From an uncultured virus (IMG/VR IMGVR_UViG_3300012000_000011) (Duplodnaviria; Heunggongvirae; Uroviricota; Caudoviricetes), in the IMG/VR virus record IMGVR_UViG_3300012000_000011: a DNA stretch of 64,000 nucleotides, one strand, 5' to 3'. The notes under the pieces were generated by a model that had not been told where the DNA came from, did no database searches, and saw only the letters and a program-made list of their open reading frames with translations. Positions 6,709-64,000 of the stretch are shown here, one piece after another; the stretch's first letter is position 1; every line of letters begins with the position of its first letter. The translations under genes and the position numbers were made by a program.

Positions 6709-7002
6709 ATGGCAACTAGCAGATATCTTTTAACTCCTAGAATCAATTTCAGTGCTCAGTATGGTACAAGCGATACTGTGTCTAAAATTCGAAATGCAAT
6801 TGCAAACAATCAAATTCAAGTTACAGTTATCTTCTTGAAAGAAGTTATACGTTTAGATGTATTAGCTGGACAATATTATGGTGATGGAAAATATTACTGG
6901 CTTATTGCCGCTGCAAGTAACATTGGTTGGTCAGTTCAAATTCCTCCCAACACAAGAATCGTGATTCCAAACCTCCAGCAAGCACTTCAGTTCTTAGGTT
7001 GA
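6709..7002 (+). CDS. LysM-like baseplate wedge protein (gp53/tail X-like)
   Basis: RLDVLAGQYYGDGKYYWLIAAASNI...IVIP is the typical LysM-like baseplate signature. Confidence 0.75.
   Translation: MATSRYLLTPRINFSAQYGTSDTVSKIRNAIANNQIQVTVIFLKEVIRLDVLAGQYYGDGKYYWLIAAASNIGWSVQIPPNTRIVIPNLQQALQFLG
6950..6998 (+). repeat. 49-nt direct repeat copy 1 (3' end of LysM-like gene)
   Basis: acacaagaatcgtgattccaaacctccagcaagcacttcagttcttagg; 48/49 identical to 7996-8044. Confidence 0.97.
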
Positions 7003-7006
7003 GAGA

Positions 7007-7038
7007 AACCTCCCCTCTCTACTATATATCATAGAGGT
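7007..7038 (+). promoter_or_regulatory. RBS-sequestering hairpin with putative late promoter (TATATA) in loop
   Basis: acctc/ctcta arm complementary to tagaggt (SD gaggtg of 7044 ORF); loop actatatatc. Confidence 0.6.
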
Positions 7039-7043
7039 GATAA

Positions 7044-8048
7044 ATGGAATACGATTACAATGGTTTTTCACTTAAATCTGGTGTTTATAAACTGACCAAC
7101 AAGCTTAATGGCAGAGTCTATATTGGTTCTGCTAGAGAATTCAAAGAACGTTGGAGAGAGCACACCAAACGTCTTAAGAGCGGCAATCACAGCAATAAGT
7201 TTTTGCAAGCTGATTACAACAAGTGTGGTGAAGATGTTTTTGTGTTCGAAGTTATTGAAGTGATTGATGGACCACAAGAGAACAGACTGTTAGTGGAACA
7301 AAGATATATCGATCAACATTATGATGACCAACAACAGTGTTATAACTTAACACGCTCTGTTAATAAGAGAGGTCCAAAGTGTCACTCATACAACCCAGAG
7401 AAGACAGCGGCAAAAAGAAAAGAAAATCCAAATAAACATCGATGGAGTGAAGAAGAAAAGAAGGTTATATCTGAAAAGTTGCGTGGGCATATTGTTTCAG
7501 AGGAGACAAGACAAAAGTTACGAGAACGAAATATAGGTAAAAAACACACCGAAGAGTCCAAGCATAAGTGTTCAAAGTCGAACAAAGGAAAACATAAAGA
7601 ACGTTTAATGAATCCAGAGATAAGGCAAAAAGCGATAGAAGCTTCGATTCTTTCTAAGAAAGGAAAACCAGCTTGGAACAAAGGTAAAGTATGCACAAAA
7701 GAAGAAGTCGAGAAGATGTCTCTGAGAGCGAAAGAGCAGTATGCAAATAATCCAGATATAAAAAGAAAACTCAGAGAAGCCAATCTTGGAAAAAAACAAT
7801 CAGAAGAAACCAAGCGTAAACGAATAGAGAAACTTCAGAAACCTATAAAAGCAATAAGTCTTGATACTGGTTTAGAGACTATCTACCCAAGTATAAAGAA
7901 AGCGTGTGAAGAGTTGGGAATATATGATTCATACATTTATCAATTTTTTAAAGGCAAAGTAAAATCGGTAAAAGGATATATTTTTGAGATGGTAGACACA
8001 AGAATCGTGATTCCAAACCTACAGCAAGCACTTCAGTTCTTAGGATAA
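7044..8048 (+). mobile_element. Free-standing GIY-YIG homing endonuclease (NUMOD3-like repeats, C-terminal HTH) ending in the duplicated host-gene C-terminus
   Basis: SGVYKLTNKLNGRVYIGS..R..H, conserved E and YN; repeats HxxSEETRQK; ends TRIVIPNLQQALQFLG identical to upstream protein end. Confidence 0.92.
7996..8044 (+). repeat. 49-nt direct repeat copy 2
   Basis: Matches 6950-6998 with one synonymous change (CTC/CTA). Confidence 0.97.
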
Positions 8049-8052
8049 AACA

Positions 8053-34184: not shown

Positions 34185-34198
34185 AAAGAGTAAATAAA

Positions 34199-37090: not shown

Positions 37091-37439
37091 TTTAGACGAC
37101 GTTCTTTGTGAACGAGACAGTAAGTTTGAATCGTTAGGAGCTTTAAAATATCATCATTGTGTTCCAAAAATGGAATACATCAATATGGCTAACAGCTTAT
37201 ACGAAGCTGGTTACAAGATTATTGTGTACACAGCAAGAGGCATGACTCATTTCGCTGGTGACGTTAAAGCTATTGAAGAAAACCTTAGATCGATAACAGA
37301 ACAACAGTTAAACGATTGGGGTGTTCGTTATCATGAGCTGGTGTTTGGGAAAAAACACTACGAACTTTTAATCGATGATAAGGCATTAAACTCTGTTGGA
37401 CTTACACTTGATCAAATCAAAGGGTTTTTAAACACATGA
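37062..37439 (+). CDS. HAD-superfamily (capsule-type) phosphatase
   Basis: FDLDDVL, YTARG, L.FGK, IDDKA. Confidence 0.85.
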   Translation: MSRQKTIAFDLDDVLCERDSKFESLGALKYHHCVPKMEYINMANSLYEAGYKIIVYTARGMTHFAGDVKAIEENLRSITEQQLNDWGVRYHELVFGKKHYELLIDDKALNSVGLTLDQIKGFLNT

Positions 37440-39459: not shown

Positions 39460-39461
39460 TC

Positions 39462-41295: not shown

Positions 41296-41714
41296 AAAAA
41301 GTTTATTCAAAAATAGAAAAAAATAAACTGCTGTTTGTGATGTATGATTTGAATAACGTTACGGACAGAGTTGATTTGGTTGATGAAAATGAGTTCTTGC
41401 AATGCGCTGTGATAAAAAAACCAAAGAACACCAAGTTTCGTCCACATAAGCACATATCAAAACCTATCAAGGTTTCTGAACAAATAGCGCAAGAATCTTG
41501 GTTTGTTTTCAAAGGTAAGATCAGAGTTTTTCATTATGATATTGATGATTCATTTATGGGAACGCATGATCTTTCAGAAGGCGAGATACACATAACTTTA
41601 GAAGGTGGTCATAGTCTTGAATGCTTAGAAGATAATACGATCATCTGCGAGCATAAAAATGGGCCGTACTACGGTCAAAAATTGGATAAAACATTCATTG
41701 AGGAAAACATATGA
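41292..41714 (+). CDS. WbuC-like cupin
   Basis: PHKH, QE...V.KG, GGH, E.K.GPY.G. Confidence 0.7.
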   Translation: MKKVYSKIEKNKLLFVMYDLNNVTDRVDLVDENEFLQCAVIKKPKNTKFRPHKHISKPIKVSEQIAQESWFVFKGKIRVFHYDIDDSFMGTHDLSEGEIHITLEGGHSLECLEDNTIICEHKNGPYYGQKLDKTFIEENI

Positions 41715-42682: not shown

Positions 42683-42740
42683 GTAAAAACATAACCTTGT
42701 GTTTGTGCTACGATATCTGGTTACTAAGGAGAACCTTTAA

Positions 42741-44033: not shown

Positions 44034-44050
44034 TAGGAAGACTATAAACA

Positions 44051-45235
44051 ATGAAATCTGTACTACTTCGTGCTCCACTACTTACTCATTCTGGCTACGG
44101 TGTTCATGCTCGGCAAATCGCTCGCTGGCTTTTTCGTGTGGCAACAGAAACACACCAACTAGACATTACAACTGAACCTCTTGGTTGGGGTAAAACTCAT
44201 ATGATTGTTGATACTGAAGCAGAAGATGGTCTTATTGGACAAATTCTTCAAGCAGCAGGAAACAAAAAGAACTTCTATGATGTAACCATTCAACTTCAAC
44301 TTCCAAATGAATGGAATCCTTTTCTTGGAACGTTTAACGTTGGGGTAACAGCAGGTGTAGAAACCGATAAGTGCAATCCAGCTTGGATTGAATGCATTAA
44401 TCGTATGGATATGATTATTGTTCCAAGCGAGTTCACAAAGCAAACTTTCCTAAACACAGGAGAAGTAACAGTTCCAATTATCGTTGTGCCAGAAAGCTTT
44501 CCAGATGGTTTGCTATCCGAAGCTATTAGTGTAGACCTTGGCTTATCAACCAAGTTTAACTTTCTTGTTGTTGGTCAACTCACTGGTAACAACACAGAAA
44601 ATGATCGTAAAAACCTTCCTTATACAATGAAGTGGCTGGCTGACGCATTCGTAGATTGTCCTGACGTTGGTATCGTTGTTAAAACAAACTCTGGCGCACA
44701 AACACAACTCGACAAGCAAAACATTAGGAATATCTTTTCTAAGTTGGTTGGAGAAATTGTTGGACCAAAGAACAAAGGGCCAAAGTTTTATCTACTTCAT
44801 GGTCATATGACAGATGAAGAAATGCATGGACTTTATACACATCCAGACATCAAGGCTCTTGTAACTTTTACCCACGGCGAAGGATATGGTTTACCTATTG
44901 TAGAAGCTGCTGCTTGTGATCTACCCATTATTGCAACAAATTGGAGCGGTCATTTAGAGTTCCTTAAGCATGGAAGATTTATTCCTGTAGACTATAATTT
45001 GATGACAATTCCTGCATCTAGAGTTGACAATCAAATTTTTATGAAGGATGTAAAGTGGGCTAATCCTGTTGAACTTGATGCCAAACAACGATTAAAGAAG
45101 TTTTATTCTGGCTCACAGATTCCAAAGCAATGGGCAACCGAGCTTGGAACAAAAATCCGAGAACATTATTGTTTTGATGCTGTAGCTCGTATTTATTCAG
45201 AAGTGTTGAATGAGCATTTGAAAGAAGAACAATGA
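44051..45235 (+). CDS. GT4-like glycosyltransferase
   Basis: SGYG, RKN, GEGYGLP..EA, WSGHLEF. Confidence 0.85.
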   Translation: MKSVLLRAPLLTHSGYGVHARQIARWLFRVATETHQLDITTEPLGWGKTHMIVDTEAEDGLIGQILQAAGNKKNFYDVTIQLQLPNEWNPFLGTFNVGVTAGVETDKCNPAWIECINRMDMIIVPSEFTKQTFLNTGEVTVPIIVVPESFPDGLLSEAISVDLGLSTKFNFLVVGQLTGNNTENDRKNLPYTMKWLADAFVDCPDVGIVVKTNSGAQTQLDKQNIRNIFSKLVGEIVGPKNKGPKFYLLHGHMTDEEMHGLYTHPDIKALVTFTHGEGYGLPIVEAAACDLPIIATNWSGHLEFLKHGRFIPVDYNLMTIPASRVDNQIFMKDVKWANPVELDAKQRLKKFYSGSQIPKQWATELGTKIREHYCFDAVARIYSEVLNEHLKEEQ

Positions 45236-49818: not shown

Positions 49819-51681
49819 ATGCCAATCGATACCAGACGATCAATCACACAAATCATTAAAGAAAGAAAATATCTTAACAAAGACTTTGATAGTTTTCGTG
49901 CTGATTTAGAAGAATACGCACGCATATACTTTCCAGATCGAATTCAAGATTTTTCTGCAAACGGATTTGGTGGTTTGCTTTTAGAGCTAGCGTCTTATGT
50001 TGGTGACGTTCAAAGCTTTTATCTCGATCACCAATTTGGTGAACTTAATGCTGAAACAGCCGTTGAATCAAAGAACCTTGAAAAGCTTTTAAGAGAAGCT
50101 GGAGTTCAAATTGTTGGAGCCGCACCAGCAGTTCTACCTGTTACATTTTACGTTCGTATCCCTGTTGATACTGATGGTTCGTATAACAAAACAGCTCTTC
50201 CTATAATAAAAGAAGGCACAACTGTTAACTCCAACTTATCAGTTCAATTTCAACTAATCGATGATTTAGATTTCACTGTTACAAAAAGCGACGGAACACC
50301 GGGTATAGGTATAAGCTATGTTATTGGTGACGTTGACAACAACAACAATCCTGCAAACTTTATTTTTTCGGCAACTGGAAATTGTTTGAGTAGCGTTACA
50401 ACCACTGAATCATTTCCTGTTAATGGATTTGAACCGTTTAAAAGATACACACTTCAAAACCGAGACGTAACTGACATTATATCAGTTATTGATAGTGACG
50501 GCAACAACTACTACGAAGTTGATTATCTAACACAAGATACTGTTTTTAAATCTGTAAGAAATAGAAATCCTGCTTCAACCGCTGCGCCAACCGAACAATA
50601 TGTTGAAGCTAATTTAGAGATTCAACCAGCACCATTTAGATTTTATCGTACAACAGCACTTGCAACACGTTTAACAACATTAACCTTTGGTGGCGGTTCT
50701 GGGCAAACAATGAATGACGATCTTGTACCAGATCCTTCTGAAGCGGCTTTGCCTTTGTATGGCCGTAAGAACTTTTCTAGGTTTACGATTGACCCAAACA
50801 ATCTTTTAAGAACATCAACATTGGGAGCTATAGCTCCAAACGTAACAATCACAGTAACATATCGTGCAGGTGGAGGTTTAAGTCATAATGTACCTCCACA
50901 AAGCATTGTAGATATAGCAACGTTGCTAACAGAGTTTCCAAACAATCCATCATCAGCAATTGCCGCAGATGTTAGAGCTTCTGCTGATGCAAACAACAAC
51001 GTGTCTGGTGCGGGTGGTGCAGATGCACCAACTTTAGATGAACTTCGTATTCAAATCCCAAGTGCTAGAGCAGCACAATCACGCATTGTAAGCAAAGAAG
51101 ATTTAATGGCAAGAATATATTCATTGCCAGCAAACTTTGGCCGTGTATATCGTGCTTCGATAAAAAACAATCCTGACAACCCGAACAGTGCTTTGCTTTA
51201 TATCTTGTGTCGTAACAATTTAAACCAACTAATACTAGCTCCAGACCTTCTTAAAAAGAACATAGCAGTATATCTCAATCAATATCGTATGATTTCTGAT
51301 GCTATCGATATACTAGATGGACGTATTGTTAACTTACAAATCAACTATGACATAACAGTTGACCCCACATATAGCCGTCAACTAGTGTTGCAAAACGTAC
51401 AAAGCAAACTTATTCAATACTTCAATGTTGGAAACTTTCAAATGGATCAACCATTGATTTTAGACGACATAAGAAACATTATCTATAACAACGTTGGTGT
51501 GTTGAGCGTTAGAGGAATAACAGCAACAAACGTTACAGGCACTGTTGGTGATCGTGTGTATAGCGATGTTCGCTATGATATCACAACAAACTTAATCAAC
51601 AACTCAATTCTTATTCCACCACCGGGAGGAATGTTTGAAATCAAATATGTAGATTTTGATTTAGTTGGTAGAGCGGCTTAG
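49819..51681 (+). CDS. Baseplate wedge protein gp6/baseplate J-like
   Basis: YL.KDFDS.R..L, SYVGD..SFYLD, L.FG.G, GG.DA....ELR, Q.RIV..ED. Confidence 0.85.
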   Translation: MPIDTRRSITQIIKERKYLNKDFDSFRADLEEYARIYFPDRIQDFSANGFGGLLLELASYVGDVQSFYLDHQFGELNAETAVESKNLEKLLREAGVQIVGAAPAVLPVTFYVRIPVDTDGSYNKTALPIIKEGTTVNSNLSVQFQLIDDLDFTVTKSDGTPGIGISYVIGDVDNNNNPANFIFSATGNCLSSVTTTESFPVNGFEPFKRYTLQNRDVTDIISVIDSDGNNYYEVDYLTQDTVFKSVRNRNPASTAAPTEQYVEANLEIQPAPFRFYRTTALATRLTTLTFGGGSGQTMNDDLVPDPSEAALPLYGRKNFSRFTIDPNNLLRTSTLGAIAPNVTITVTYRAGGGLSHNVPPQSIVDIATLLTEFPNNPSSAIAADVRASADANNNVSGAGGADAPTLDELRIQIPSARAAQSRIVSKEDLMARIYSLPANFGRVYRASIKNNPDNPNSALLYILCRNNLNQLILAPDLLKKNIAVYLNQYRMISDAIDILDGRIVNLQINYDITVDPTYSRQLVLQNVQSKLIQYFNVGNFQMDQPLILDDIRNIIYNNVGVLSVRGITATNVTGTVGDRVYSDVRYDITTNLINNSILIPPPGGMFEIKYVDFDLVGRAA

Positions 51682-51684
51682 TTT

Positions 51685-51705
51685 GTAAAACGTTACCTCC
51701 TTACT
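51685..51705 (+). repeat. 21-nt imperfect direct repeat copy 1 flanking GIY-YIG gene
   Basis: gtaaaacgttacctccttact vs gtaaaacctgccctccttact (52761-52781), 18/21. Confidence 0.6.
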
Positions 51706-51726
51706 ATATAGTAATAGGAGAGGTAA
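51693..51726 (+). promoter_or_regulatory. RBS-sequestering hairpin with TATATA at apex
   Basis: ttacctc...gaggtaa outer stem and ttact...agtaa inner stem; covers SD ggagaggt. Confidence 0.75.
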
Positions 51727-51732
51727 AGTTTT

Positions 51733-52764
51733 ATGGAATACAAGTACGAAGGTCATTCTCTTAAGTCTGGAATTTATAAGATCACAAATAAACTAAATGG
51801 AAGAATCTATATTGGTTCTGCGAAACTTTTCAAAGTTCGCTGGAATCAGCATTCATCTTCTCTTCGTAATCAAAAGCATCAAAACAAGTTTCTTCAAGCA
51901 GATTTTAACAAATGTGGTGAAGATGCATTTCTATTTGAAGTTATTGAAGTAACTGAAGACAAATCAAAAGAAGAGCGTTTAATGATTGAAGAAGGTTATA
52001 TTAACCAATATTATGATAAAGGAAACAACTGCTACAATCTTTGTGACAGGGCGATTTCAAGGGAGGGGAATCCTAGCAAAGATCCAGAAGCAACAAGGAA
52101 TAAGCTTAAAGGAAAGACTCCTTGGAACAAGGGCAAACAAACTGGTATCGAACCGTGGAACAAAGGCAAGACTAATGTATTTGCAGAAGAAACTTTAGAA
52201 AAGATTAGGCAAGCGAGAGCGGAGCAAGTTTTTTCTGAAGAATCGAATAGAAAAAGGGCTGATAGTTTGCGTGGCAGAACTTTTTCTGACGAAGCAAAAG
52301 CGAAAATAGGTGCAGCAAACAGTGTTCTTATGAAGGAGAAGTGGGAAGATCCAGAATATCGTGAATCTCAAATAGAAAAACTAAGGTCGGTAGAACGTGT
52401 ATATACTGATGAAATGCGAGCTAGAGCGAGTGAAGCACGCAAAGGAAAGACTCACAGTGTAGAAACGATTGAAAAACTTCAAGAAACAAGGAAGAAACAG
52501 TGGGAAGACCCAGAGTTTAGAGAGAAAGTTGTAAATTCGATGAATAGCCCAGAAGCTATCGAAAACTATAGCAAAGCATCTTCAGCAAGATGGCAGGATG
52601 AAGAGTATCGCAAACGCATGATTGAATCGATACGAAATTCGATTGACAAAACGCAGAGAGCCGAAACATCAAAAAAACGGTGGGAAGATCCCGAGTATAA
52701 AGCAAAAGTTTCTGCTAAAATAAAAGCTTCATGGGAAAGACGCAAGGCACAAAAGAGTTCGTAA
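51733..52764 (+). mobile_element. Free-standing GIY-YIG homing endonuclease (NUMOD3-like and WEDPEYR repeats)
   Basis: SGIYKITNKLNGRIYIGS..R..H; PWNKG x2; WEDPEY/F x3 plus WQDEEY. Confidence 0.92.
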
Positions 52765-52781
52765 AACCTGCCCTCCTTACT
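52761..52781 (+). repeat. 21-nt imperfect direct repeat copy 2
   Basis: Matches 51685-51705 at 18/21. Confidence 0.6.
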
Positions 52782-52828
52782 TCTCTAGATTTATATAAAG
52801 CAGCTATTTACATCATAGTGGAAAAACT

Positions 52829-54418
52829 ATGTATCGTATTCTTAAAGCTGACAAAGATAGCTACGTTACCAACAAAATAATTAATAGCACACGCCCAACT
52901 ACTTCAGCTTCTACGGATGCAAACGTAGGCCAAGCTGGTACCATTGATTTGTTCAAGCTATACAACGCTACCACCGTGCCAAGCGGTACTTCTGGTGTAG
53001 AACTATCTCGTGGCCTTATTCATTTTGATTTAAATGAACTTCGTGCTCTTACTGGTTCTATTCTTAACATCAATGATTCAAGCTTTAAATGCTATGTGTC
53101 GATAAAAAATGTGTATGGTGGGCAAACTGTTCCATCAAATTATACGCTTATTCTATATCCGCTAGCAAAAGATTGGGAAGAAGGTCGTGGTAACGACGTT
53201 ATTGGTTATCGTGACTTAGATGCTGTCAACTGGTTTACTGCTTCAATTAATCCAACAGTTGTAACATGGACAAGTGGTGGAATAGGTTATGGATCAGATG
53301 TAACAGATGTTAATGCAGACTATTATCTTTCTTCTTCTCTTATTGGTAATGTTCCACTAGGCTTCTCTCAAAGCTTTGCCAGAGGTGATGAAGACTTGCT
53401 AATCGATGTAACTACAGCAGTTTCTGCTACACTTAATGGTGACATACCTGATTATGGATTTAGATTAAGTTTTTCTGGGTCACAAGAAACTGATACAGTT
53501 ACAAGATTTGTTAAACGTTTTTCTTCAAGACAAAGTAGAAACACTAATATTCATCCAGCACTTGTTGTAAAATACAACGATAGCTTTTTCGACAATCAAG
53601 CAAGTTCGTTTTTTGATTACAACAACAAAATAGGCTACTATTATTCGCCATTTGGTGTTGAATCAAACTTTATGTCTGGCAGCACTGAAGTATCTGGTTC
53701 TGGTAGCATTATTCTAGAACTAATTGCCAGCAAAAGCGTATATGTTACCGCAACAACATATAGTTTCAGTCATTCAATGTCGATAAACTATACGTCAGCA
53801 AGTTGGAATTATTTTTCTCAAAGCTTTACAGGTTCTCAAATAAGTTTTGGTGGAATATTTCAAACAGGAAGTTATTATGCTGATGTGTTTATTCCCTTGA
53901 ATACAACAGGATTATCTGGGGTTCTTAAATCAGACAAAAGCGTTGAGTTCGAAAGTGTTTGGAAGTCGCCGGATAATACCGTTATATTCGCTACAGGGTC
54001 ATCTATAACCTTCAATCAGCTTCGTGGACGTAACACCATAGTCAACACTCAAAACTACGGTATTAACATCACCAACCTAGAAGAAAACTACCCAAACAAT
54101 CAATCAACAACCTTGCAAGTTTTTGTGTACGATTTTGATCCAACTCTTAAAAGTTTTTATTTGCCTTATAAGGCTCAACCAAAAGTGTTTCCAAAGATGT
54201 ATTGGAGATTGATTGATCCATTTACAAAAGAAGTGTTGATTCCTTTTGATGACGTTGGAACAAAGCTTTCAGCGGACGGTGGTGGTATGTATTTTACTTT
54301 GTATATGCAAGACTTACCAATCAACAAACCTTTGGAAATTCAATTTTTGATCAAAGAAAACAACGAAACATATTTGATTGAAAATCAAGGGTTTAAGTTT
54401 AAGGTTATCGCATCATGA
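52829..54418 (+). CDS. Virion structural protein (baseplate/tail)
   Basis: KD.Y..., SRGLIHFDL, PL.KDW.EG.G, TKLS.D..GMYF; Ser/Thr/Gly-rich; synteny. Confidence 0.65.
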   Translation: MYRILKADKDSYVTNKIINSTRPTTSASTDANVGQAGTIDLFKLYNATTVPSGTSGVELSRGLIHFDLNELRALTGSILNINDSSFKCYVSIKNVYGGQTVPSNYTLILYPLAKDWEEGRGNDVIGYRDLDAVNWFTASINPTVVTWTSGGIGYGSDVTDVNADYYLSSSLIGNVPLGFSQSFARGDEDLLIDVTTAVSATLNGDIPDYGFRLSFSGSQETDTVTRFVKRFSSRQSRNTNIHPALVVKYNDSFFDNQASSFFDYNNKIGYYYSPFGVESNFMSGSTEVSGSGSIILELIASKSVYVTATTYSFSHSMSINYTSASWNYFSQSFTGSQISFGGIFQTGSYYADVFIPLNTTGLSGVLKSDKSVEFESVWKSPDNTVIFATGSSITFNQLRGRNTIVNTQNYGINITNLEENYPNNQSTTLQVFVYDFDPTLKSFYLPYKAQPKVFPKMYWRLIDPFTKEVLIPFDDVGTKLSADGGGMYFTLYMQDLPINKPLEIQFLIKENNETYLIENQGFKFKVIAS

Positions 54419-57400
54419 CAACATTACCAACATCAATTCAAAGATTGGTTGCTTTACGTCCCGGTGTTTTCAGTCCATCATTGGTTCGTGGAGTTATTGA
54501 TCCAGATGGAGGATTGTCAACCTTTTCTTCAGAAAACGGAGCGTTCTTAACTCAAGCACCTGTTGGAGAAACAGGATCGTTTCGTTATGATCCAATAGGT
54601 TCTGGTATTAAATCAACTCAACAACTAAATGTTGATTGGAGTTTGTTTGAAAACCATGTGTTTTTCAACAGTGCTCAAGTAAAAGTTAACGCAGCTTTTA
54701 ACAAAATCTTTGATCGTTATCCTTTTGACGGAACTCAAAAAGAAACCGAACTTTTCTACGATCAAATGACAGGTTATGAAAACTATGTGTTTACAAATCT
54801 TCCAAAGCACAAAGGTTATCTTTTCTTTTCTGGCAGTAACATTGGCGATACACCAGTAAGAGGTACGTGGATTACCGTAAAAGATAGCGCAGGCACATCG
54901 TTTCCTTTTCTTACAAAGAATCCAAACGGTGCTAGCAGGCTTGATCCAACATCGGGTTCAGTCTCGTTTCAGTTTCAAATCTATGCTGCATCAGGTTCTA
55001 ACTCAAACCAAATGGTTTTCCAAAAACTCGAAACTTTAAGCGCAACCGAACAACATGGTTTTGGTTGCTTTCTTTCGAGTTCTACGGCCCCTACAGCGAG
55101 CTTAACATTCTTTGTTGCCTCTGGGTCAACAAACGTTATGTCTGCCACTGTTGAGCTTGTTAAAGAGTCTTGGACGCCTATTACATTTACTTGGAACAGA
55201 ACAAGTGGTATCAATCAATTGTTTGGTTATGTAAGTGGTTCATTGGTTGCAACAAGCAGTCAAGTTACAATTCGTAACTTGAATTTTCCAACAGCCAGTT
55301 TGCTTATTGGGACAGGAAGTAACATTCTTGCACCATTGTTTACACCAGCAACAACATTCTCTGGAGCTATAGACGAGTTTCGTTATTTCAAGCGTGTTGT
55401 TTCTACCGATGAAATGATATCGTATCAAAGCAGCAGCATATATGCTGAACCAGAACTTGCTTTGTACTTTAAGTTTAATGAGCCAAGTGGATCAACTACA
55501 AACCTTGTTTTAGATTCTTCTGGTAAAGGTATGCATGGCACATTAAATGGCTATGCGTTAAACATCTTAAAAGTAAGAGATATCAACACAGGTTCTTATA
55601 TGGGCGAAAGCCCAATGATTTATGAAGACATAAGAAAATGTCCGATATTGTTTCCAGATCAACCAGAAGTTGTAACATATCGTGAGAACCTTATTTCTGA
55701 TGGAGCTTCATACGATTCTTACAACCCAAACATCATAACAAAGCTTGTACCAAAGCAATATTTCACATATGGACAAGAACAAGCTGCGTTGGAAACCGAA
55801 GAAGGTGAAATCAATGAGTTGCAATATGGTTCTGAACCAAACACAGCAGCTCTTGGCAGCACACAAACTTTGTTAAGTTTGCTTTATCTTTGGGCAGGAT
55901 TCTTTGACGAAATCAAATTGTTTCTTGATGCGTTTTCAACATTAAGACACGTTGATTATGACCAAAATGACACAGCCCCAGATGCGTTTTTAAAACAACT
56001 TGCTGATTTTTACGGCTTGGATCTTCCACCTTTGTTTATTGGTTCAGATGTTAATCAGTTCATTAACGGAACCAACGTTACACCAACCATTGTTAACAGC
56101 GAATATACCCTTCAATATCTACAAAATCAAATCTGGCGTAGGATATTGATTAATGCCAACGACATTCTTAAAAGCAAAGGTACAATACACAGCATCAAAG
56201 CTTTTTTAAGAGCGGTTGGTATTGATGGAGACAACATTTTTAGATTCAAAGAATATGGTGGACCAACACAACGTACACTTGATTCTTTGCGTGAGTCAAG
56301 AAATGAAATCGGAACAACGTTAAACTTTAAAGCTGGTGGTTATGTAAAAACACCATATCTTTCTGGGAGCAGAGTTGAACCGGGATATCCAACACCTGTT
56401 GGATCATTTGTTGTCGATCCTAATACTGGACATAACATAGGAACAACAAACGTTAACGACGGTTTGTTTACAAGTGGTTCATGGACATACGAAGGTATTT
56501 ACAACTATTCTGGTACACCTAGTACCAGTTCTGTTCAAAGCCTTGTACGCATTATGTCTACAGGTTCTAGCAACGTAGAAAATGTGTTAGCTAACTTGTA
56601 TGCAACAACTGGGTCAGGTGTTACGTTGTACGTCAACCCAAACTCAACTGTTGGAGCAACTGCTTTAACAATGAGCATAACAACACCCGACATTATGAAC
56701 GGTCAAGCTTGGAACATAAGCTTTGGTAGAGTTCGTGGTGATTCTATTAACCAAGTATCTTCGTCTTACTTTTTGCGTGTTGGTAGAAACAACCTTGGAA
56801 GTATTGTAGAAGAGTACACAACAAGTTCTTATTACGATGATAACTTTGGGTCTAACTCTGCTAACAATATGTGGCAAGTTATCAATGGAACATATAATGG
56901 TTCTGGTTCTTTTCTAGCGTTTGGTAGCGGTAGCACAACAATTGCCACAACCAATCGATTTGTTAACGAACATCCGTTACAAACGTTTGATGGTAAGATA
57001 ACGCAAATGCGTTGGTGGAGCGAAGGATTAACTCTTGACGAATGGAGAGAACACGTAAGAGACTATAAGAGCCTTGGTGTACAAGATCCGTTGGTTAACT
57101 TCAACTTTGAAAACTTTAGAAGCGGATCATTCCAAAAACTTCGTGGTGATTGGAACACAGATCAAATTGAGTTGATGACAGACTCAACAGGTTCAATTCA
57201 AATCTTTGACTTTTCTCAGCATTATCTACATGCTAGCGGTACTGGATTCCCTGTAACGTCTTCTGTTATCATCCCAGAACGATTTTACTATTCGTTTATT
57301 TCTCCAAACTTTGATGAAGCTGTAACAGATCAAAAGGTTCGTGTAAGAAGCTATCAAAGCTTGGATTATGTCGATCAAGACGTTGGTTCGTATTCTCAAG

Positions 57401-57870
57401 CAGCTCCTATATACGAGATTCAACAAGAACAAATACCCGAAGACAATGCTAAGTTCAGCATTGATTTTTCTATCGTTGACTCACTAAACCAAGACATGAT
57501 TGGAATGTTTTCTTCGTTGGATATATTCAACAACATTCTTGGAGCCCCAGATATGATGTTTTCTCCAGATTACCCAGATCTAGAATCATTGCGAGACATA
57601 TACTTTAACCGACTAACAACTCAGTTAAACATTCGTGGCTTCTTTGAGTTTTATCAATGGTTTAATACCAACATGGGTAAGTTTATTGAACAACTACTGC
57701 CAAGAAAAACAAAGTTTAAAGGCATCAACTATGTGATTCAATCTCACATGCTTGAACGTCCAAAACTTGAATACCACTTCGAAGATATCTACGTGGGCGT
57801 CAATAACAGAAATCGTCAAAAAGAAGTGCTTTTACTGCAACTTTTCACCGGTACGTTAAAAAAATATTAG
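54415..57870 (+). CDS. Large baseplate wedge protein (gp7/P2-I-like segment) with LamG-like domains
   Basis: FFNSA..KV, FSGAIDEFR, L.YFKFNE, IWRRIL.N...I.KSKGT..SIKAFLR..G, SHMLERPK. Confidence 0.7.
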   Translation: MTTLPTSIQRLVALRPGVFSPSLVRGVIDPDGGLSTFSSENGAFLTQAPVGETGSFRYDPIGSGIKSTQQLNVDWSLFENHVFFNSAQVKVNAAFNKIFDRYPFDGTQKETELFYDQMTGYENYVFTNLPKHKGYLFFSGSNIGDTPVRGTWITVKDSAGTSFPFLTKNPNGASRLDPTSGSVSFQFQIYAASGSNSNQMVFQKLETLSATEQHGFGCFLSSSTAPTASLTFFVASGSTNVMSATVELVKESWTPITFTWNRTSGINQLFGYVSGSLVATSSQVTIRNLNFPTASLLIGTGSNILAPLFTPATTFSGAIDEFRYFKRVVSTDEMISYQSSSIYAEPELALYFKFNEPSGSTTNLVLDSSGKGMHGTLNGYALNILKVRDINTGSYMGESPMIYEDIRKCPILFPDQPEVVTYRENLISDGASYDSYNPNIITKLVPKQYFTYGQEQAALETEEGEINELQYGSEPNTAALGSTQTLLSLLYLWAGFFDEIKLFLDAFSTLRHVDYDQNDTAPDAFLKQLADFYGLDLPPLFIGSDVNQFINGTNVTPTIVNSEYTLQYLQNQIWRRILINANDILKSKGTIHSIKAFLRAVGIDGDNIFRFKEYGGPTQRTLDSLRESRNEIGTTLNFKAGGYVKTPYLSGSRVEPGYPTPVGSFVVDPNTGHNIGTTNVNDGLFTSGSWTYEGIYNYSGTPSTSSVQSLVRIMSTGSSNVENVLANLYATTGSGVTLYVNPNSTVGATALTMSITTPDIMNGQAWNISFGRVRGDSINQVSSSYFLRVGRNNLGSIVEEYTTSSYYDDNFGSNSANNMWQVINGTYNGSGSFLAFGSGSTTIATTNRFVNEHPLQTFDGKITQMRWWSEGLTLDEWREHVRDYKSLGVQDPLVNFNFENFRSGSFQKLRGDWNTDQIELMTDSTGSIQIFDFSQHYLHASGTGFPVTSSVIIPERFYYSFISPNFDEAVTDQKVRVRSYQSLDYVDQDVGSYSQAAPIYEIQQEQIPEDNAKFSIDFSIVDSLNQDMIGMFSSLDIFNNILGAPDMMFSPDYPDLESLRDIYFNRLTTQLNIRGFFEFYQWFNTNMGKFIEQLLPRKTKFKGINYVIQSHMLERPKLEYHFEDIYVGVNNRNRQKEVLLLQLFTGTLKKY
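57805..57870 (+). repeat. 66-nt direct repeat copy 1 (last 21 codons + stop of 54415-57870)
   Basis: 53/66 identical to 58661-58726; encodes NRNRQKEVLLLQLFTGTLKKY*. Confidence 0.95.
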
Positions 57871-57873
57871 CAA

Positions 57874-57909
57874 AAACCTCCCCCACGATATACCTATATT
57901 TGGGAGTTT
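57874..57909 (+). promoter_or_regulatory. RBS-sequestering hairpin with TAnnTA loop
   Basis: aaac(c)tccc pairs with gggagttt; loop contains gatatacctata. Confidence 0.6.
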
Positions 57910-57911
57910 AT

Positions 57912-58661
57912 ATGATTTTTTTGTATGAAGGGAAGAGTAAATCAAGCGGCATCTACCATATCCATAACAAACATACTAATCGGTATTATATCGGGCAGTC
58001 AAAAGAGTTCAAAGAACGTTGGAAAAATCATTCTTGGAGCTTGTTACAGCAAAAACAACAAAACAAATATTTTCAGTCCGATTTTAATCTGTGTTTTTCA
58101 GAGCTTGGACATACCGATTTCCTAGAATTTAAGATTATTGAACTACTTCCTGATTCTAAAAAGGAAGACCGAAACAAACGAGAAGATTGGTGGATATCAG
58201 AATATAAGCGGCAAGGTAAACAACTATATAACTTCGTAACGAACAACTGTTCGACCGAACATGTCCATTCACATGACCCAGAAACCACAAAACGAAAATT
58301 GTCTGATGCCGCTAAAAAAAGATGGCAAAAGCCGGAATACCGTGACAAAGTTTTGGAGGTATTAAAAAATCGTCCAGCGGAAGGTTATAGACATACCGAT
58401 GAGGCTAAAGAACGTATAAAAAAAGCTATGTCAACACCAGAAAACAAAAAAAGATTATCTGAGTTGTGCCAAACAAAAAAACCACACACAAAAACTCATG
58501 ATGTAAGATTGGTTTCGCCAGATGGTACAATTTATGGCCCTATAACAAACATGGCGGAGTTTTGCAGAACCCACGGCATTCATCCACGATCTATGCGACT
58601 GCTTCGTAATGGTACGCTTTTGGAAACAAAAGGCTGGAAACTTTTAAAAGAATATATATGA
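57912..58661 (+). mobile_element. Free-standing GIY-YIG homing endonuclease
   Basis: SGIYHIHNKHTNRYYIGQS.EF.ERW; C-terminal L.SPDG..Y...NMAEFCR.HG...KGW; ATG 57912 follows GGGAG. Confidence 0.9.
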
Positions 58662-58726
58662 ATAGAAATCGTCAAAAAGAAGTGATTTTGTTGCAACTAT
58701 TCACTGGTATACTTAAGAAATACTAA
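58658..58726 (+). repeat. 66-nt repeat copy 2, forming 22-aa mini-ORF MNRNRQKEVILLQLFTGILKKY
   Basis: ATG overlaps endonuclease stop (ATGA); its TAA overlaps the AAGGA RBS of the 58739 gene. Confidence 0.9.
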
Positions 58727-58738
58727 GGAAAACCAAAC

Positions 58739-59776
58739 ATGCCATACTGGGTTACTGATACATCTTTTAAACCGTTTGTTGATATAGCAGATTACTACGG
58801 TAGAACAAATCGGTATCTTACTGTATCTGGTGGTATGCCAACCAAAGAAATCGACATATATCGTGAAGGTGTTAACCTACGCACAATACAAGACGTTTAC
58901 AGTTCAAATCAACCAAAGATTATTTTTCAAGATGGTACGCAAGATCGGTTAACTGAACCAAACGGAGAAATGTTGCATCAATCTCCGTTTGCAACATATG
59001 GTCAAGCTGGAGACTATATCCAATATACTTCCAACACTTTGTTTAATGATTCTCATGTTGGTATTGAAGGAACCTTGTTGGTTGGTGGAAAAAGAATAAG
59101 CAAAACAACAAATTATTTGATTGAATCTGGTCTTATTGTTGAAGGATATTTGAACGCTGATGACGTTTATCCGATTTATATGAACGGTGGACCACAGTTT
59201 TATGAAGAATCGATTATAGAACCGTTTCCTATGCCTTTTCGTCTTGCAACCAACGAAAGTCCGCAAGAACAAATACGAGGCGTATACGCTTTTCTAGAAG
59301 CTGGCAACATTGGTGATGAACGTAGATTCGGTACCGATGTTGTTGAACAAATGGTTTATCGTGAAGAACCTAAAATGGTTCGTTCGTTCTTGGAATATGG
59401 TGCCGGATATATACTTGTTACAGCAAGCAACGGAACCGTTATTGGTGTAATCGATACAAGACCTAATGCGATTATGGATCAAACTGTTCAACCAAGAATC
59501 GAACCTTGGGTCGATCAGCCTAATGGTGCGTTCTTTCCAGAACTAACCAACACAACAAATTTGTTAAGCGTTCAAGTTACTTCTAGCGTTGTTAACTTGA
59601 ATGGTGAAGTTGTTGGTTCAATTGTTCAACCATTTTTTAGTGAAAATTATGAGATAAGTGATTCAAACTTACAAACGAGAGATCAAAAAAGTGCAACAGC
59701 AGGATTCACATATGGTAACGTTGCTTTGTATGGTACGGACTCAGTTGCATTTGGTGGATATTATCGTGGAGCATAA
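58739..59776 (+). CDS. Putative virion structural protein
   Basis: C-terminal SATAGF.Y...GTDSVAFGG; synteny in tail operon. Confidence 0.6.
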   Translation: MPYWVTDTSFKPFVDIADYYGRTNRYLTVSGGMPTKEIDIYREGVNLRTIQDVYSSNQPKIIFQDGTQDRLTEPNGEMLHQSPFATYGQAGDYIQYTSNTLFNDSHVGIEGTLLVGGKRISKTTNYLIESGLIVEGYLNADDVYPIYMNGGPQFYEESIIEPFPMPFRLATNESPQEQIRGVYAFLEAGNIGDERRFGTDVVEQMVYREEPKMVRSFLEYGAGYILVTASNGTVIGVIDTRPNAIMDQTVQPRIEPWVDQPNGAFFPELTNTTNLLSVQVTSSVVNLNGEVVGSIVQPFFSENYEISDSNLQTRDQKSATAGFTYGNVALYGTDSVAFGGYYRGA

Positions 59777-59784
59777 CTAACAAC

Positions 59785-62106
59785 ATGGCAAGAACTCTTA
59801 AAGGAACAAGAGCGAGAGGATTACCACCCAAAGTATTATTGTCTCAAAGACAAGATACCACTGGTAGCTTTCCAACAATTTGGAGAACATCAAGCGACAA
59901 CCGCACCGGACGCTATCCTGTTTTCTTTAATGACAACAAAGTTGTTACATTCAATCAACCTGTAACAAACGTCGGAATAACAGTAGAAGCAACATATCCA
60001 GAATACGAGGAAAAAGTCGTTACAATCGGTTCTCCCGGCAATCCAGTAAATCAATCAAATCCTATTATATTTGATTATTCATTTTCTGGAACTCCTTTTG
60101 TTGTATTAACAGAGTTAACTCCTAACGCAAACACTCCTATTGTTAATGCGTTTATCGATCCGTTATTCGTTGGAGGGATGACGATTAAGTTCTCTGCACC
60201 ATTTGAAGGAACAATCGTTTACCGAGCGTTATATCAATCTTCACCGGGAAATCCTGTTAACGTTTTAAGATCGCCAAGGTTTGTAAATCAATATTCTTTA
60301 GCTGTTGTAAATAATGCAGAGTTCGATACCAATAATATTCTTGGCAATCCAAACACTGCCGATATTACTTTTTCTGATTTTGGTTCTGTTCCAACAGAAA
60401 ACTATGTAACTTTTTATGATTTTTACACAAACAATCAAGCAAACATATCTTCTAGTATTTCAGTTGTAACAAATACATCTGCTCAAGTAACTGGAAGTGC
60501 TGCTGGTGATGTTGTTTTGTATTACATGGGTGTTGGTACTTCAACCGCTTCTATCGATGTAAGTGGTATTGTATATCCTTTAGTAATGACTCCGCAAGCT
60601 ATTAATGCCGATCTATCTCCAGAAGCTAAATCAGATTTATACAAGCAACCATTCTTTTCTGGTTCTGAGATTGTTAATCAACCTATTGTTGCTTCTGGGA
60701 GTATGAAGAAAAACGTATCAGATATCTTTGTTACGTTTACACCGGGACAAGATATCGAACCTTTTCAAGACTTTGCAAATCCAGAAGTTGATGCAAAAAT
60801 ATCGAACGTAACAAGTTCGAATTATCGGTTTTTTGCAACAGGTAGCTTGGTTGAAACAACAGGTTTAGGTTTTCAACAACCTGTTTGGAGCAAAAACAAG
60901 ATAGAAATTGATATAACTCCAGCAGCCGATCAAACAATAACGATGTATCAAAGCGCAAGCGTTGGAAGTTATCCAATGTATTATTGGAACTTTGCTACGA
61001 AACAATACGAAGGCAAAGGAAACGGTAAAGGGATACAAAGCGTACCAAACACATTGAACGGTCTTAAAACGTTTTTAGAGGAACAAACGTTTGGTTTCGC
61101 TTCAAGTATGGATGTTGGAGGTTTACCAACAGGATTTTCGGAAGGAATATTTAACGTCAAGGGAAGACAAATAAGCGACTTTGGTTTTCCATATCATCCA
61201 AAATTTAAACCAACAACAAATCAACAACTCAATATCGGAAACCATATATCAGAGCCATTTTTACTTGAAAAAGTCGTGATTGAGTTTTATGGTAAACTTA
61301 AACCGCTAGCATCAGGTTCATTTGGAACCACCGCAATATGGACTTTTTTTCTTTTAAACAATCGTCCATCTTTGAGTGGATCTATTTCACCTTCACAGAC
61401 TATTGTTTATCAAACCAATCCCGGTGCGATCACCCCGCCGCTTTCCTTCACAACTAGCTCTTTATTAGATTCAACCGTGTTAGATGTTGTGGATCATATG
61501 CAAATATGCGTATCAAACAGCTTTGATACCAAAGGATATTTGCAAAGAGAGCTTTTGCTTAATTCTGGGGAGTTGGTTGGTCCAATGAACGGTCCACGAC
61601 AATTTGTTTTATCCTCTAGCGTTAAAACCAGTATAGCTTATGAAGCGGGAGCTTATACAGCATATTCCGGTAGTTTTGGTAATGAGTCGGGATTCGTTGA
61701 AAGCTTAGATTATTCTGGAAGAAATCAATTAAATCAAGCAAACGGTAGAGATTGGTCTTCTACCTTTTCAAGTCCTGTTGTCGCAGGAACCGCTTCGTAT
61801 TTTATAGCCAGTTACAACTATACCATTAACGTGAACGAAACATATACAAAACAAAATCCTTATGTTTTGCTACCAACGGATAAGTTGGTTTTCGGCGTAC
61901 AACTTCCTTGGGCCACGGGACTTGGTGGTACGCAATGGAACGATGATTCAACATCAGTTGATTTTTCTCAGTACGGCATCAACAAAATCATTCTTTACGG
62001 TTCAACATTAAGAGTTAATCCAGAAACAAATCAACTTGAAGAATATCATGATACGTTAAATCAGCTTCTTTCTTCAAACAGTATTCATGAAGTGATTGGA
62101 GAATAG
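59785..62106 (+). CDS. Putative virion structural protein
   Basis: Ser/Thr/Gly-rich, FGFPYHPKF, ISEPFLLEKV, PYVLLP.DKL.FG; synteny. Confidence 0.6.
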   Translation: MARTLKGTRARGLPPKVLLSQRQDTTGSFPTIWRTSSDNRTGRYPVFFNDNKVVTFNQPVTNVGITVEATYPEYEEKVVTIGSPGNPVNQSNPIIFDYSFSGTPFVVLTELTPNANTPIVNAFIDPLFVGGMTIKFSAPFEGTIVYRALYQSSPGNPVNVLRSPRFVNQYSLAVVNNAEFDTNNILGNPNTADITFSDFGSVPTENYVTFYDFYTNNQANISSSISVVTNTSAQVTGSAAGDVVLYYMGVGTSTASIDVSGIVYPLVMTPQAINADLSPEAKSDLYKQPFFSGSEIVNQPIVASGSMKKNVSDIFVTFTPGQDIEPFQDFANPEVDAKISNVTSSNYRFFATGSLVETTGLGFQQPVWSKNKIEIDITPAADQTITMYQSASVGSYPMYYWNFATKQYEGKGNGKGIQSVPNTLNGLKTFLEEQTFGFASSMDVGGLPTGFSEGIFNVKGRQISDFGFPYHPKFKPTTNQQLNIGNHISEPFLLEKVVIEFYGKLKPLASGSFGTTAIWTFFLLNNRPSLSGSISPSQTIVYQTNPGAITPPLSFTTSSLLDSTVLDVVDHMQICVSNSFDTKGYLQRELLLNSGELVGPMNGPRQFVLSSSVKTSIAYEAGAYTAYSGSFGNESGFVESLDYSGRNQLNQANGRDWSSTFSSPVVAGTASYFIASYNYTINVNETYTKQNPYVLLPTDKLVFGVQLPWATGLGGTQWNDDSTSVDFSQYGINKIILYGSTLRVNPETNQLEEYHDTLNQLLSSNSIHEVIGE

Positions 62107-62114
62107 TTACCATC

Positions 62115-63320
62115 ATGCCAATCTACGATGTAGAAAATAGATTCTCCTACTACAAAAGCTATTCAGATAACATTCTTGTTGGGCCGCCAAAACCAAAAAT
62201 AGGTGATACAACATGGCTTAGAGCAGTTTCTGGAAGCGTTGTAAGTGGTTCAGAAGAATATAAAGCCGCAACATTTCTTTCGGATTATGTGTTTGAATTT
62301 AACAACAAATTTTTTAGATCTGGTGAAGTTAGATATTTGAAGTTATCATCTATAAACCAACAAATAGAAGATTCGATTGCTCCTTCTCCATTGCAATTGT
62401 GTACAACTGGCACATATGCTTCTGGTGTTTTGGGCCAAAAAAATGGATCATTTACTCCCGAACTTTCAAAAGCAGCAACGTTGTTGTTTGCGATTGATAG
62501 AAAAGTTATAACGGGATCAAATGGCGTTTACTCAGGAAAAAGAGTTAATAATCTTGAATGGTTGGACAGTTATCCTTATGAGAAAAAATATTCGTATGTT
62601 GATCGGGGTATCATTACTTTTATCCCAGTAACCACACGTTATGAGATATATCCAAAGGGTCAGACTCCGGGTTTAGATGAACTTTTATGGTTCGATGCGG
62701 CGGGTGTAGGGGAAAGCTTCACCACATCGAGTCTTCCATATGTTATATATTTTACATCGATAGCTACAACTGGCATAAAATATTACAACGAATTCGCTGA
62801 AAGAACCGGAATAAACGGAACATTTTCTGATGCCGACTCTTCGCTTTCGTTTACTAGCAACAATATATCGTTAACAGCGAAAACGGTTTTTGGAATTAAT
62901 CCACAAGCGATAGAAACACCAAATTCTTTGAGCGTGGTAGGTTCGGTTATAAACTTTTGCAGTGGTGTTTATATTGAAGGTTGGAAATATGGATTATACA
63001 ACGGACTACCAACCAACTTTTCTTGTGTGTTCAGACAAAACCATTACGGTCAACCAATGGATATGCTTGAAGGTAGACCATATACAAAAACATACAACAA
63101 CCCTTTGATTGGCGGGCCTATGGACGAAGGTGGAGGTATTAACTTTATCTCTGGTAGTGCTTTGTCCGGTGAAAGCAATAACTGGTTAACTGCATCGATA
63201 TATCAATCTAAAAACGTTGCAGCGGCTTATGTAGTTAATCCATATGGGTCTGGAATATTCGATAAAGAATACCGTGCTTCTCAACCGTGGCATGATGACG
63301 ATCCAAGAGTAGGAACATAA
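62115..63320 (+). CDS. Putative virion structural protein
   Basis: GWKYGL, FRQNHYGQ..DMLE.R; synteny. Confidence 0.6.
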   Translation: MPIYDVENRFSYYKSYSDNILVGPPKPKIGDTTWLRAVSGSVVSGSEEYKAATFLSDYVFEFNNKFFRSGEVRYLKLSSINQQIEDSIAPSPLQLCTTGTYASGVLGQKNGSFTPELSKAATLLFAIDRKVITGSNGVYSGKRVNNLEWLDSYPYEKKYSYVDRGIITFIPVTTRYEIYPKGQTPGLDELLWFDAAGVGESFTTSSLPYVIYFTSIATTGIKYYNEFAERTGINGTFSDADSSLSFTSNNISLTAKTVFGINPQAIETPNSLSVVGSVINFCSGVYIEGWKYGLYNGLPTNFSCVFRQNHYGQPMDMLEGRPYTKTYNNPLIGGPMDEGGGINFISGSALSGESNNWLTASIYQSKNVAAAYVVNPYGSGIFDKEYRASQPWHDDDPRVGT

Positions 63321-63321
63321 C

Positions 63322-63387
63322 ATGGGTTTACTTGATCCGAAAACACGTAAGAAAATACTTGACGATCATATATATTCATCGAGATGA
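63322..63387 (+). pseudogene. 21-aa mini-ORF MGLLDPKTRKKILDDHIYSSR, probably an interrupted/orphaned gene 5' end
   Basis: ATG begins 1 nt after previous stop with AGGA RBS; stop overlaps endonuclease ATG (ATGA). Confidence 0.5.
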
Positions 63388-64000
63388 AACAGAGTGGAAT
63401 ATATAAGATAGTCAACAATATTAATGGCCGTTGCTATATTGGATCTGCTAAAAATATAAAGCGGCGGTGGCAACATCACATTTGTAGTCTTAAAAAACAA
63501 AGACATTCTACCCCATTTTTACAAGCCGATTACAACAAGTGCGGTCAAAACTGCTTAAATTTTTTGATTTTAGAAGAGTGCGTTGAAGAAGCGATCATCG
63601 AAAGAGAGCAATATTGGTTGAACATATACTATGATGATCAAAACCAGTGTTATAATCTTAGAAAGATTGCCGAATCAAATAGAGGCTACAAAGCTTCTGA
63701 TGCAACAAGGCAAAAGATGAGAGAAGCCAAAAAAGGGTTCAGACCATCTCCTGCAACCATAGAAGGATGCATAAAATACCATTCTGGTAGAAAAAAAGAT
63801 GAAAACGAAAGAAAAGCTATGAGCGATGGCTGGATCAAAAAGTTATCCAGTTTAACAGATGAAGAACGAAAATCACATTCGAATATTTGTAGCGAGAGAA
63901 GTAAAAGAGCATGGACAGATCCAGTCATAAGACAAAAATTGCTAGAAGCTAGGGCGAAAGAGCGGCCTTATAGAAGAAAAGCAGTCATCCAATATGATCT
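63384..64000 (+). mobile_element. GIY-YIG homing endonuclease, 3'-truncated by window edge (not in ORF track)
   Basis: Own translation: MKQSGIYKIVNNINGRCYIGSAKNIKRRWQHH...FLQADYNKCG...EREQYW...CYNL; frame open to 64000. Confidence 0.9.

Follow-up and report, generated by a model that had tools for sequence, protein, structure and literature searches.

Introduction

Homing endonuclease genes accompanied by a duplicate of the end of their host gene are known from fungal mitochondria. In Glomus sp., atp6, atp9, cox2 and nad3 contain a foreign C-terminal piece together with an endonuclease open reading frame (ORF); the native C-terminus, which most resembles that of an element-free relative, is found farther downstream, the differences are synonymous, and the first such hybrid gene was traced by the authors to Allomyces atp6 (PMC3630166). 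In Endoconidiophora, too, the C-termini of atp6 and cob are reported as duplicated next to GIY-YIG and LAGLIDADG ORFs (PMC6279837). Here we describe a comparable arrangement in a 64,000-nucleotide stretch of DNA from an uncultured virus (IMG/VR record IMGVR_UViG_3300012000_000011; Caudoviricetes), hereafter called the window. We found that positions 57808-58663 of the window very probably represent an 856-nt homing-endonuclease cassette which recently invaded a structural gene, geneX, 22 codons before its stop codon. The first part of this cassette would be a foreign, synonymously diverged version of the geneX end, comprising its final 21 codons with the stop (copy 1) and joined in phase so that geneX remains intact; it would be followed by a short leader, in which a CUCCC motif pairs with the ribosome-binding site, and then by a GIY-YIG homing endonuclease gene (HEG1). 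The tail that belonged to the recipient (copy 2) would have been pushed downstream, where it still abuts the next structural gene, geneY. The mitochondrial elements are called mORFs, and that of Allomyces macrogynus atp6 was reportedly described by Paquin et al. in 1994. For fungal mitochondria the principle has been known for 30 years, so the advance made here concerns scope and detail, not kind.

As in mitochondrial mORFs, the endonuclease ORF of the window lies in the 3' part of a host gene, an in-phase foreign C-terminal segment precedes it, and the native C-terminus has been displaced downstream, identical or nearly so to that of an element-free relative, with the DNA more diverged than the protein. 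The phage case departs from mORFs in that its host is a double-stranded DNA phage and no mitochondrion, in that a far smaller piece, of 10-30 codons, is duplicated, and in that the endonuclease gene has its own leader predicted to mask the ribosome-binding site. Besides, the native C-terminus of Glomus atp6 and cox2 was not found in mRNA, whereas the displaced phage tail is in a translatable configuration, and most Glomus cases involve LAGLIDADG enzymes, whereas HEG1 is of the GIY-YIG type (PMC3630166). Judged from its sequence, the phage case appears to share every mechanistic feature of mORFs while lying outside the mORF lineages.

The locus also resembles the T4 seg genes, which are free-standing GIY-YIG genes located between or beside conserved genes and show presence/absence polymorphism in close relatives, co-conversion of flanks and hairpin masking; seg genes also have NUMOD-type modules, for which HEG1 gave a sub-threshold match. 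However, seg genes are intergenic and cut at a distance, whereas the cassette lies inside a coding sequence, brings a replacement tail and has its insertion site and presumed cut site in the same place (both comparisons follow a T4 review, PMC2988022). Like group I introns, inteins and the mobE/nrdA system, the cassette occupies conserved coding sequence and the host gene survives; unlike these, it involves no RNA or protein splicing, and the host protein is unsplit and is completed by the carried duplicate. In phage Aeh1, for example, the mobE insertion splits nrdA into two genes. The T4 review mentions "genes-in-pieces" once and has no occurrence of "duplicat" (PMC2988022). No phage case of a carried gene tail appeared in the literature searched, which included the available parts of this review and of an ICP1 endonuclease survey and covered subscription journals incompletely.

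Results and Discussion

Two copies of the geneX tail

All features of the locus lie on the + strand. In the ORF list geneX occupies 54415..57870 (1151 aa); its current 3' end is copy 1, and its protein ends in ...NNRNRQKEVLLLQLFTGTLKKY. It is followed by the HEG1 leader (57871..57911), by HEG1 itself (57912..58661, 249 aa), which starts 41 nt past the geneX stop, and by geneY (58739..59776, 345 aa), which is preceded by AAGGA at 58725-58729. A repeat finder detected a direct repeat between 57805-57878 and 58661-58734 (74 nt, 80% identity). This pair was the longest among 43 direct-repeat families in 54000-62500, the next two-copy family being 33 nt long and 73% identical. Copy 1 (57805..57878) consists of 21 codons, TAG and 8 nt past the stop, in phase with geneX. 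Copy 2 (58658..58726) forms a 22-codon ORF, MNRNRQKEVILLQLFTGILKKY, whose ATG overlaps the HEG1 TGA (ATGA, 58658-58661) and whose TAA (58724-58726) overlaps the geneY AAGGA, 9 nt upstream of the geneY ATG at 58739.

Over the 66 coding nucleotides the two copies differ at 13 positions, 10 of which are in synonymous codons (TAG/TAA included); the other three sit in two codons, CTT/ATT (L/I) and ACG/ATA (T/I), giving residue changes at 2 of 21 codons. A block of 21 nt, AGAAATCGTCAAAAAGAAGTG, is identical at 57808-57828 in copy 1 and 58664-58684 in copy 2. An original prediction, made from the window alone, had reported these differences, the identical block and the overlaps of the copy 2 start and stop with the neighbouring genes, and our recount agrees with it throughout. 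In a simulation that placed 12 substitutions randomly on the 63 sense nucleotides and kept the 9 transitions and 3 transversions (200,000 trials), two or fewer residue changes occurred in 0.0135% of trials (P=1.35e-4). The substitution pattern fits purifying selection on both tails, suggesting that both evolved as working gene ends. Among six alleles, the 21-nt block fell in the lowest 4% for variability within the geneX end. The boundary 57808-58663 given for the cassette is one placement, since the exact point slides across this block.

Cassette-free relatives and the origin of each copy

The relatives of the locus were 8 viral contigs recovered by a scan with geneY. In all 8 the end of geneX ran directly into geneY with no endonuclease gene. 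One cassette-free contig, represented by loci L008, L020 and L113, was near-isogenic with the window: L008/L020 had 2 mismatches in 6587 nt (50329-56915) and overall 4 scattered differences in ~9.4 kb, with a further cluster of 8 within 57779-57804. Over 2800 nt on the left side of the block, L008 differed from the window at two scattered positions (56367 and 57039) besides the clustered ones (57779, 57780, 57793, 57795, 57798, 57800, 57801 and 57804). The latter mark a co-converted tract (57779..57804) directly left of the duplication. On the right side, 58664-58790 showed 0 differences from L008 in 127 nt. The L008 tail matched copy 2 at 65 of 66 positions, the sole difference being AAC/AAT at the junction, and copy 1 at 54 of 66. 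Because of this near-identity, copy 2 is the recipient's own displaced tail. Adding an 856-nt insert and a ~26-nt conversion tract to the L008 contig thus yields the window, which means that copy 1 came in with the endonuclease gene. The original prediction had held that both copies derive from functional alleles and that the element imported a diverged gene end. The first point was borne out by copy 2, a working gene end in the cassette-free contig; as to the second, the imported copy, which had been left unspecified, is copy 1. The comparison with orthologous gene ends proposed there gave L008 for copy 2 and, for copy 1, a best match of 58/66.

The stretch or parts of it were present in runs of 11 studies, mostly labelled freshwater or lake-water metagenomes, and four runs (X4, X6, X9 and X11) were compared over 57400-59100. 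In X11, which belongs to another study, a 1645-nt contig joined 57807 to 58664 and skipped 856 nt; the joint is ambiguous over 21 nt because the 21-nt block is identical in the two copies. In X9 the cassette had one listed difference in 58127-58663, and copy 2 had four differences in its first 30 nt (58669, 58684, 58685 and 58690). X9 therefore appears to carry the same cassette in a different resident background, and this pattern is what the model below predicts if copy 1 travels and copy 2 stays. As a side observation, the contigs of X4, a lake-water run, break at 57774-57782 and 58558-58669, at both edges of the imported segment. A 38-nt piece there had about twice the depth of its neighbours. 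Such a picture would be expected if invaded and naive forms coexist in the sample, but contig breaks by themselves prove nothing.

The endonuclease and its leader

HEG1 is an intact gene. Its product matched Pfam GIY-YIG (PF01541) at 30 bits (cut-off 22.6) and phrog_314, homing endonuclease (E 2.1e-16); a NUMOD3 match of 17.2 bits was below the cut-off of 20.4. Alignment with 6 relatives showed invariant Y5, G13, Y15, Y26-I27-G28, R36, E91 and N107, and settled the start as the ATG at 57912. A C-terminal segment, ...IYGPITNMAEFC...GWKLL, was common to L017 and partly to L010. HEG1 shows two marks of a free-standing, seg-like GIY-YIG homing endonuclease gene, a catalytic domain above threshold and a presence/absence polymorphism with a conversion tract at the boundary. 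A scan of bacterial and archaeal genomes with the endonuclease profile found no relatives.

Five nucleotides upstream of the HEG1 ATG is a ribosome-binding site, GGGAG (57902-57906), which pairs with CUCCC at 57878-57882. The leader folds at -10.9 kcal/mol (z -2.04; 8 of 200 shuffles folded equally well), and the modelled hairpin is predicted to mask the ribosome-binding site. In the T4 review, masking of this kind by a hairpin is described for I-TevI, segB and mobE (PMC2988022). The leader motif AAAACNTCCCC, with one mismatch allowed, had 3 hits in the window (4.1 expected by chance), all beside endonuclease genes of the HEG1 family. We therefore rejected the idea of a general intergenic signal; the motif belongs to the element and not to ordinary intergenic phage DNA. 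A scan of viral contigs with a 15-mer of the leader returned 58 stretches, the pattern being too short to be useful; among these, L050 (on a window-like contig) and L076 (on the contig of L007) were recognised as relatives of the window. No terminator was found after geneX, and promoter-like sites numbered 6, versus 5.6 in shuffles.

A model of homing with a carried tail

The following route would account for the arrangement. Cassette-free alleles would be cleaved at or just left of the conserved 21-nt block, as suggested by the 26-nt tract on the left side. The left break end would then invade the donor geneX body and copy copy 1, the leader and the endonuclease gene, while the right break end would pair with the tail downstream of the donor endonuclease gene. 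If repair follows this route, copy 1 moves together with the element, and what becomes copy 2 is in every case DNA of the recipient. The invaded genome would be protected because neither rebuilt site equals the naive one: the first differs by 8 substitutions, and the second has endonuclease sequence to its left. Those substitutions, clustered in 57779-57804, are compatible with the possible nuclease immunity of the imported end that the original prediction had raised. I-TevI, which cuts ~23-25 nt upstream of its insertion site, offers a lead here and not a test.

The carried tail would bring the insertion point to the cleavage point and leave the host gene undamaged, a result which introns and inteins reach by splicing. 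[quoted passage not shown] Carrying the intervening tail would remove this distance, and this may be the rationale for the cassette. A free-standing endonuclease gene could in this way unite insertion and cut site with neither intron nor intein, which bears on the persistence of such genes in compact phage genomes. The first cassette probably arose from an intergenic endonuclease gene, of the type seen after the same PhoH gene in L111/L140. One may speculate, as a guess, that illegitimate joining then linked the 3' end of such an endonuclease gene to an unresected break end which had kept the tail.

Recurrence at other genes

The arrangement recurs at other genes. A profile scan found 44 viral loci. 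Script analysis of 43 of them showed the endonuclease ORF to be complete in 35, and in 7 of these 35 a direct repeat flanked the gene at its stop (E<0.01). A protein-level test for tail duplication was applied to 32 complete loci (duplicates dropped, the two genes of the window included) and was positive in three: the HEG1 site (z 17.7), L015 (z 21) and L127 (z 6.8). With a further endonuclease gene of the window, HEG3, duplication of a coding tail was found in 4 of 33 complete family loci.

The HEG3 cassette (6950..8048, + strand; whole locus 6709-8052) comprises copy 1 at 6950-6998 with its stop at 7000-7002, a leader, HEG3 at 7044-8048 and copy 2 at 7996-8044, fused in frame. The repeat is 49 nt long and 98% identical (E 2.8e-20). 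The upstream gene, of 97 aa, ends in ...NTRIVIPNLQQALQFLG, and HEG3 ends in ...GYIFEMV joined to DTRIVIPNLQQALQFLG, so that its last 17 codons are the displaced tail in frame. HEG3 passed the Pfam thresholds for GIY-YIG, NUMOD3 and I-HmuI_NUMOD-like. L015 has a Cpn60 chaperonin gene as its host and a repeat of 70 nt (73% identity), and its endonuclease runs on in frame into the displaced tail (...GWNIK joined to YALEHASSVVGLMLTCNSVVLNERTESDG); searching with the gene that follows L015 gave no relatives. The endonuclease gene of L127 sits behind a PhoH gene; here the repeat measures 48 nt (94% identity) and the tail is likewise fused in frame (...KGWK joined to LATLASEILT).

In the other repeats (L105/L106, L109, HEG2 and its variant L123, and L119 with E 0.015) the leader arm alone was repeated between genes. 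HEG2 (51680..52781, + strand) is intergenic, lying between the baseplate-wedge-like gene and the next gene, with an ORF at 51733-52764 (343 aa), a 26-nt direct repeat at 51680-51705 and 52756-52781, and no duplicate of a coding tail (z 0.1). Its leader hairpin (-21.6 kcal/mol, z -3.39) masks ribosome-binding site and start codon in the predicted fold. These cases matter for annotation: short orphan ORFs and odd C-terminal extensions of endonucleases can be displaced tails of host genes, and mosaic gene ends can be products of homing.

Probable scars, losses and re-invasion

Different stages of the element were found when the sites were compared. At the HEG1 site, L008 and other relatives are naive and the window is invaded. 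L007 (2960-3003) has no endonuclease gene and keeps the first 15 nt of the leader directly after the stop, a remnant which forms no hairpin. At the HEG3 site, a stop of the copy 1 type and the leader arm remain in all three endonuclease-free relatives (L162-L164:2440-2503), and copy 2 is reduced there to its last few nucleotides. At the HEG2 site, L025, L026 and L028 are naive, L022-L024 have a spacer with the leader motif upstream of position 2501, and L020, L021 and L027 are invaded. The leader-arm remnants of L007, L162-L164 and L022-L024 are probably scars of endonuclease loss, and scarred alleles may be resistant to re-invasion. After the end of the PhoH gene, a decayed endonuclease start was present in L139 (MEYRFEGNANK..., 2404-2500). 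In L127 (2852-2935), a decayed start (MEYKFEGNIF, then a stop) follows copy 2 and a fresh cassette lies upstream, which suggests re-invasion of an already scarred site. The four sites therefore offer the stages of a life cycle: naive (HEG1 and HEG2), invaded (all sites), decayed or deleted (all sites, with a decayed remnant at PhoH) and probably re-invaded (PhoH).

Fate of the displaced tail

We are somewhat inclined to regard copy 2 as a neutral relic, kept intact by the recency of the invasion, with the ATG and the fusions as by-products of viable illegitimate joining. Outside the conversion tract the window and the cassette-free contig have four scattered differences in ~9.4 kb, leaving no time for decay. 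L007 and L162-L164 have lost most of copy 2, which points to a tail that is dispensable once the endonuclease gene is gone. In addition, the tiny gap between the endonuclease stop and the next gene in compact phages would confine viable junctions to the end of the ORF. However, a relic predicts no bias toward the native frame, yet all three fusions are in the native frame and the fourth locus has an in-frame ATG at the endonuclease stop.

This bias would be explained if selection keeps the displaced tail translated, by restart at the overlapping ATG or by read-through elsewhere, with termination on the geneY ribosome-binding site and geneY expression undisturbed; we hold this to be possible and put it forward tentatively. 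A relay of ribosomes through copy 2 to geneY had been raised as a possibility in the original prediction, and the layout expected of such a relay is present, in that the start of copy 2 overlaps the upstream stop and its stop adjoins the downstream start region. The displaced tail is readable in its native frame at 4 of 4 loci, with three in-frame fusions (HEG3, L015 and L127) and one ATGA overlap. A rough chance estimate, (1/3)^3 x ~0.1, is near 0.004, but it is post hoc, as the comparison covers four loci and was chosen after the data were seen. The junctions are independent, with different host genes and endonucleases that are 31-40% identical in alignment. Also, the downstream ATG of L015 overlaps the native stop (ATGGCTGA), and at HEG3 the next ATG is 4 nt past the native stop. 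At both window sites copy 1 has lost the downstream ribosome-binding site (TAGCAAAAA vs TAAGGAAAA; GGTTGA vs GGATAA), so that this function stays with copy 2.

On the other hand, several observations speak against such selection. Copy 2 arises anew from recipient DNA at each invasion, so selection need not be invoked to explain why it is intact; here its age amounts to a few substitutions at most. The ATG of the mini-ORF has no preceding Shine-Dalgarno sequence, and few ribosomes would arrive there, HEG1 probably being poorly translated from its masked ribosome-binding site. GeneY has its own AAGGA, and 58640-58760 has no unusual structure (z +0.47), which leaves nothing to melt. Nor is coupling required in general, since an untranslated gap of 64 nt separates HEG2 from the next gene. 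As the ATG of the mini-ORF belongs to the cassette, its presence in X9 reflects shared descent. Finally, the footprint alleles have discarded copy 2. Contigs of X6, an RNA library, cover 58552-58738; they show neither transcription, starts nor strand and were not counted as evidence. The native-frame bias of displaced tails opens a modest and testable line of enquiry into translational coupling in phage operons. The wider proposition, that such cassettes give phage homing endonucleases a third route, besides introns and inteins, to occupy their cut site within conserved genes and that selection for native-frame translation of the displaced tail makes the invasion silent for geneY, seems to us rather unlikely.

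Alternative explanations of the locus

It is very improbable that the polarity is the reverse, with the window ancestral and the cassette-free contigs having lost the endonuclease gene by recombination between the copies. Direct repeats can recombine, and the tail of L003 (2900-3000) does look chimeric, being copy 1-like up to ...CTGCAACTTTT and copy 2-like thereafter. Endonuclease loss by recombination between the copies would leave such a pattern, as would shared polymorphism, and losses of this kind may have occurred in some lineages. However, a deletion between the copies would have retained 57779-57804 of the window, where L008 differs at 8 positions, and this excludes loss in L008. Moreover, the L008 tail is copy 2-like throughout and not chimeric, and none of the 8 relatives has an endonuclease gene at the geneX site. 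Two further readings, a self-splicing intron lying between the copies and a repeat created by assembly, can be dismissed: nothing was found in support, Rfam reported over 57000-59500 no group I or II intron and no family at E<=1 except a chance microRNA hit (E 0.98), copy 1 encodes the full tail and stop, unlike an exon-intron boundary, and the arrangement is not an assembly artefact because both junctions are spanned by independent sequences, namely L013, a separate 1111-nt metagenome contig identical to 57680-58790, and contigs of other runs (X4, 57753-58558; X6, 58552-58738; X9, 58127-58720).

Several points weigh against a recent invasion by a tail-carrying cassette as proposed above. A duplicated coding tail is not a constant trait of the family, being present at only 4 of 33 loci. 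Apart from X9, the cassette-bearing sequences at the geneX site represent one haplotype (L009/L014 and L013). The best match of copy 1 among 8 alleles is L003, at 58/66, and its last part (..ACCGGTACGTTAAAAAAATATTAG) matches none of them; the donor lineage of copy 1 thus appears to be unsampled. The proposals on where the enzyme cuts and on the invaded allele being immune are guesses from the sequence. The junction of geneX and copy 1 rebuilds a full-length homologue of the target that includes the 21-nt block, and immunity would therefore have to rest on the flanking substitutions. Nor is the block unique in its conservation: of 880 stretches of 21 nt taken from the final 900 nt of geneX, 36 are just as invariant among the six alleles.

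Genomic context

The window is phage-like, with a baseplate wedge gene, phage-type glycosyltransferases and four endonuclease genes of the HEG1 family (7044-8048, 51733-52764, 57912-58661 and 63384 to the window end), and its relatives are viral contigs. GeneX lies downstream of the baseplate-wedge-like gene (49819-51681; phrog_219, baseplate wedge), and the only Pfam match of its protein is Laminin_G_3. In a collection of isolated phages, no match was found for 56800-59800 (blastn) or for the last 400 aa of geneX (tblastn); the lineage has no cultured relative in that collection. The fourth endonuclease gene, also of the GIY-YIG type (63384-63998), is cut off by the window end. Elsewhere in the window, a run of same-strand ORFs at 30401-45235 includes two glycosyltransferase-like genes (42741-44033 and 44051-45235; phrog_2170) and a GtrB-like gene (31372-33375; phrog_841), and may be a module for surface sugars or for DNA modification.

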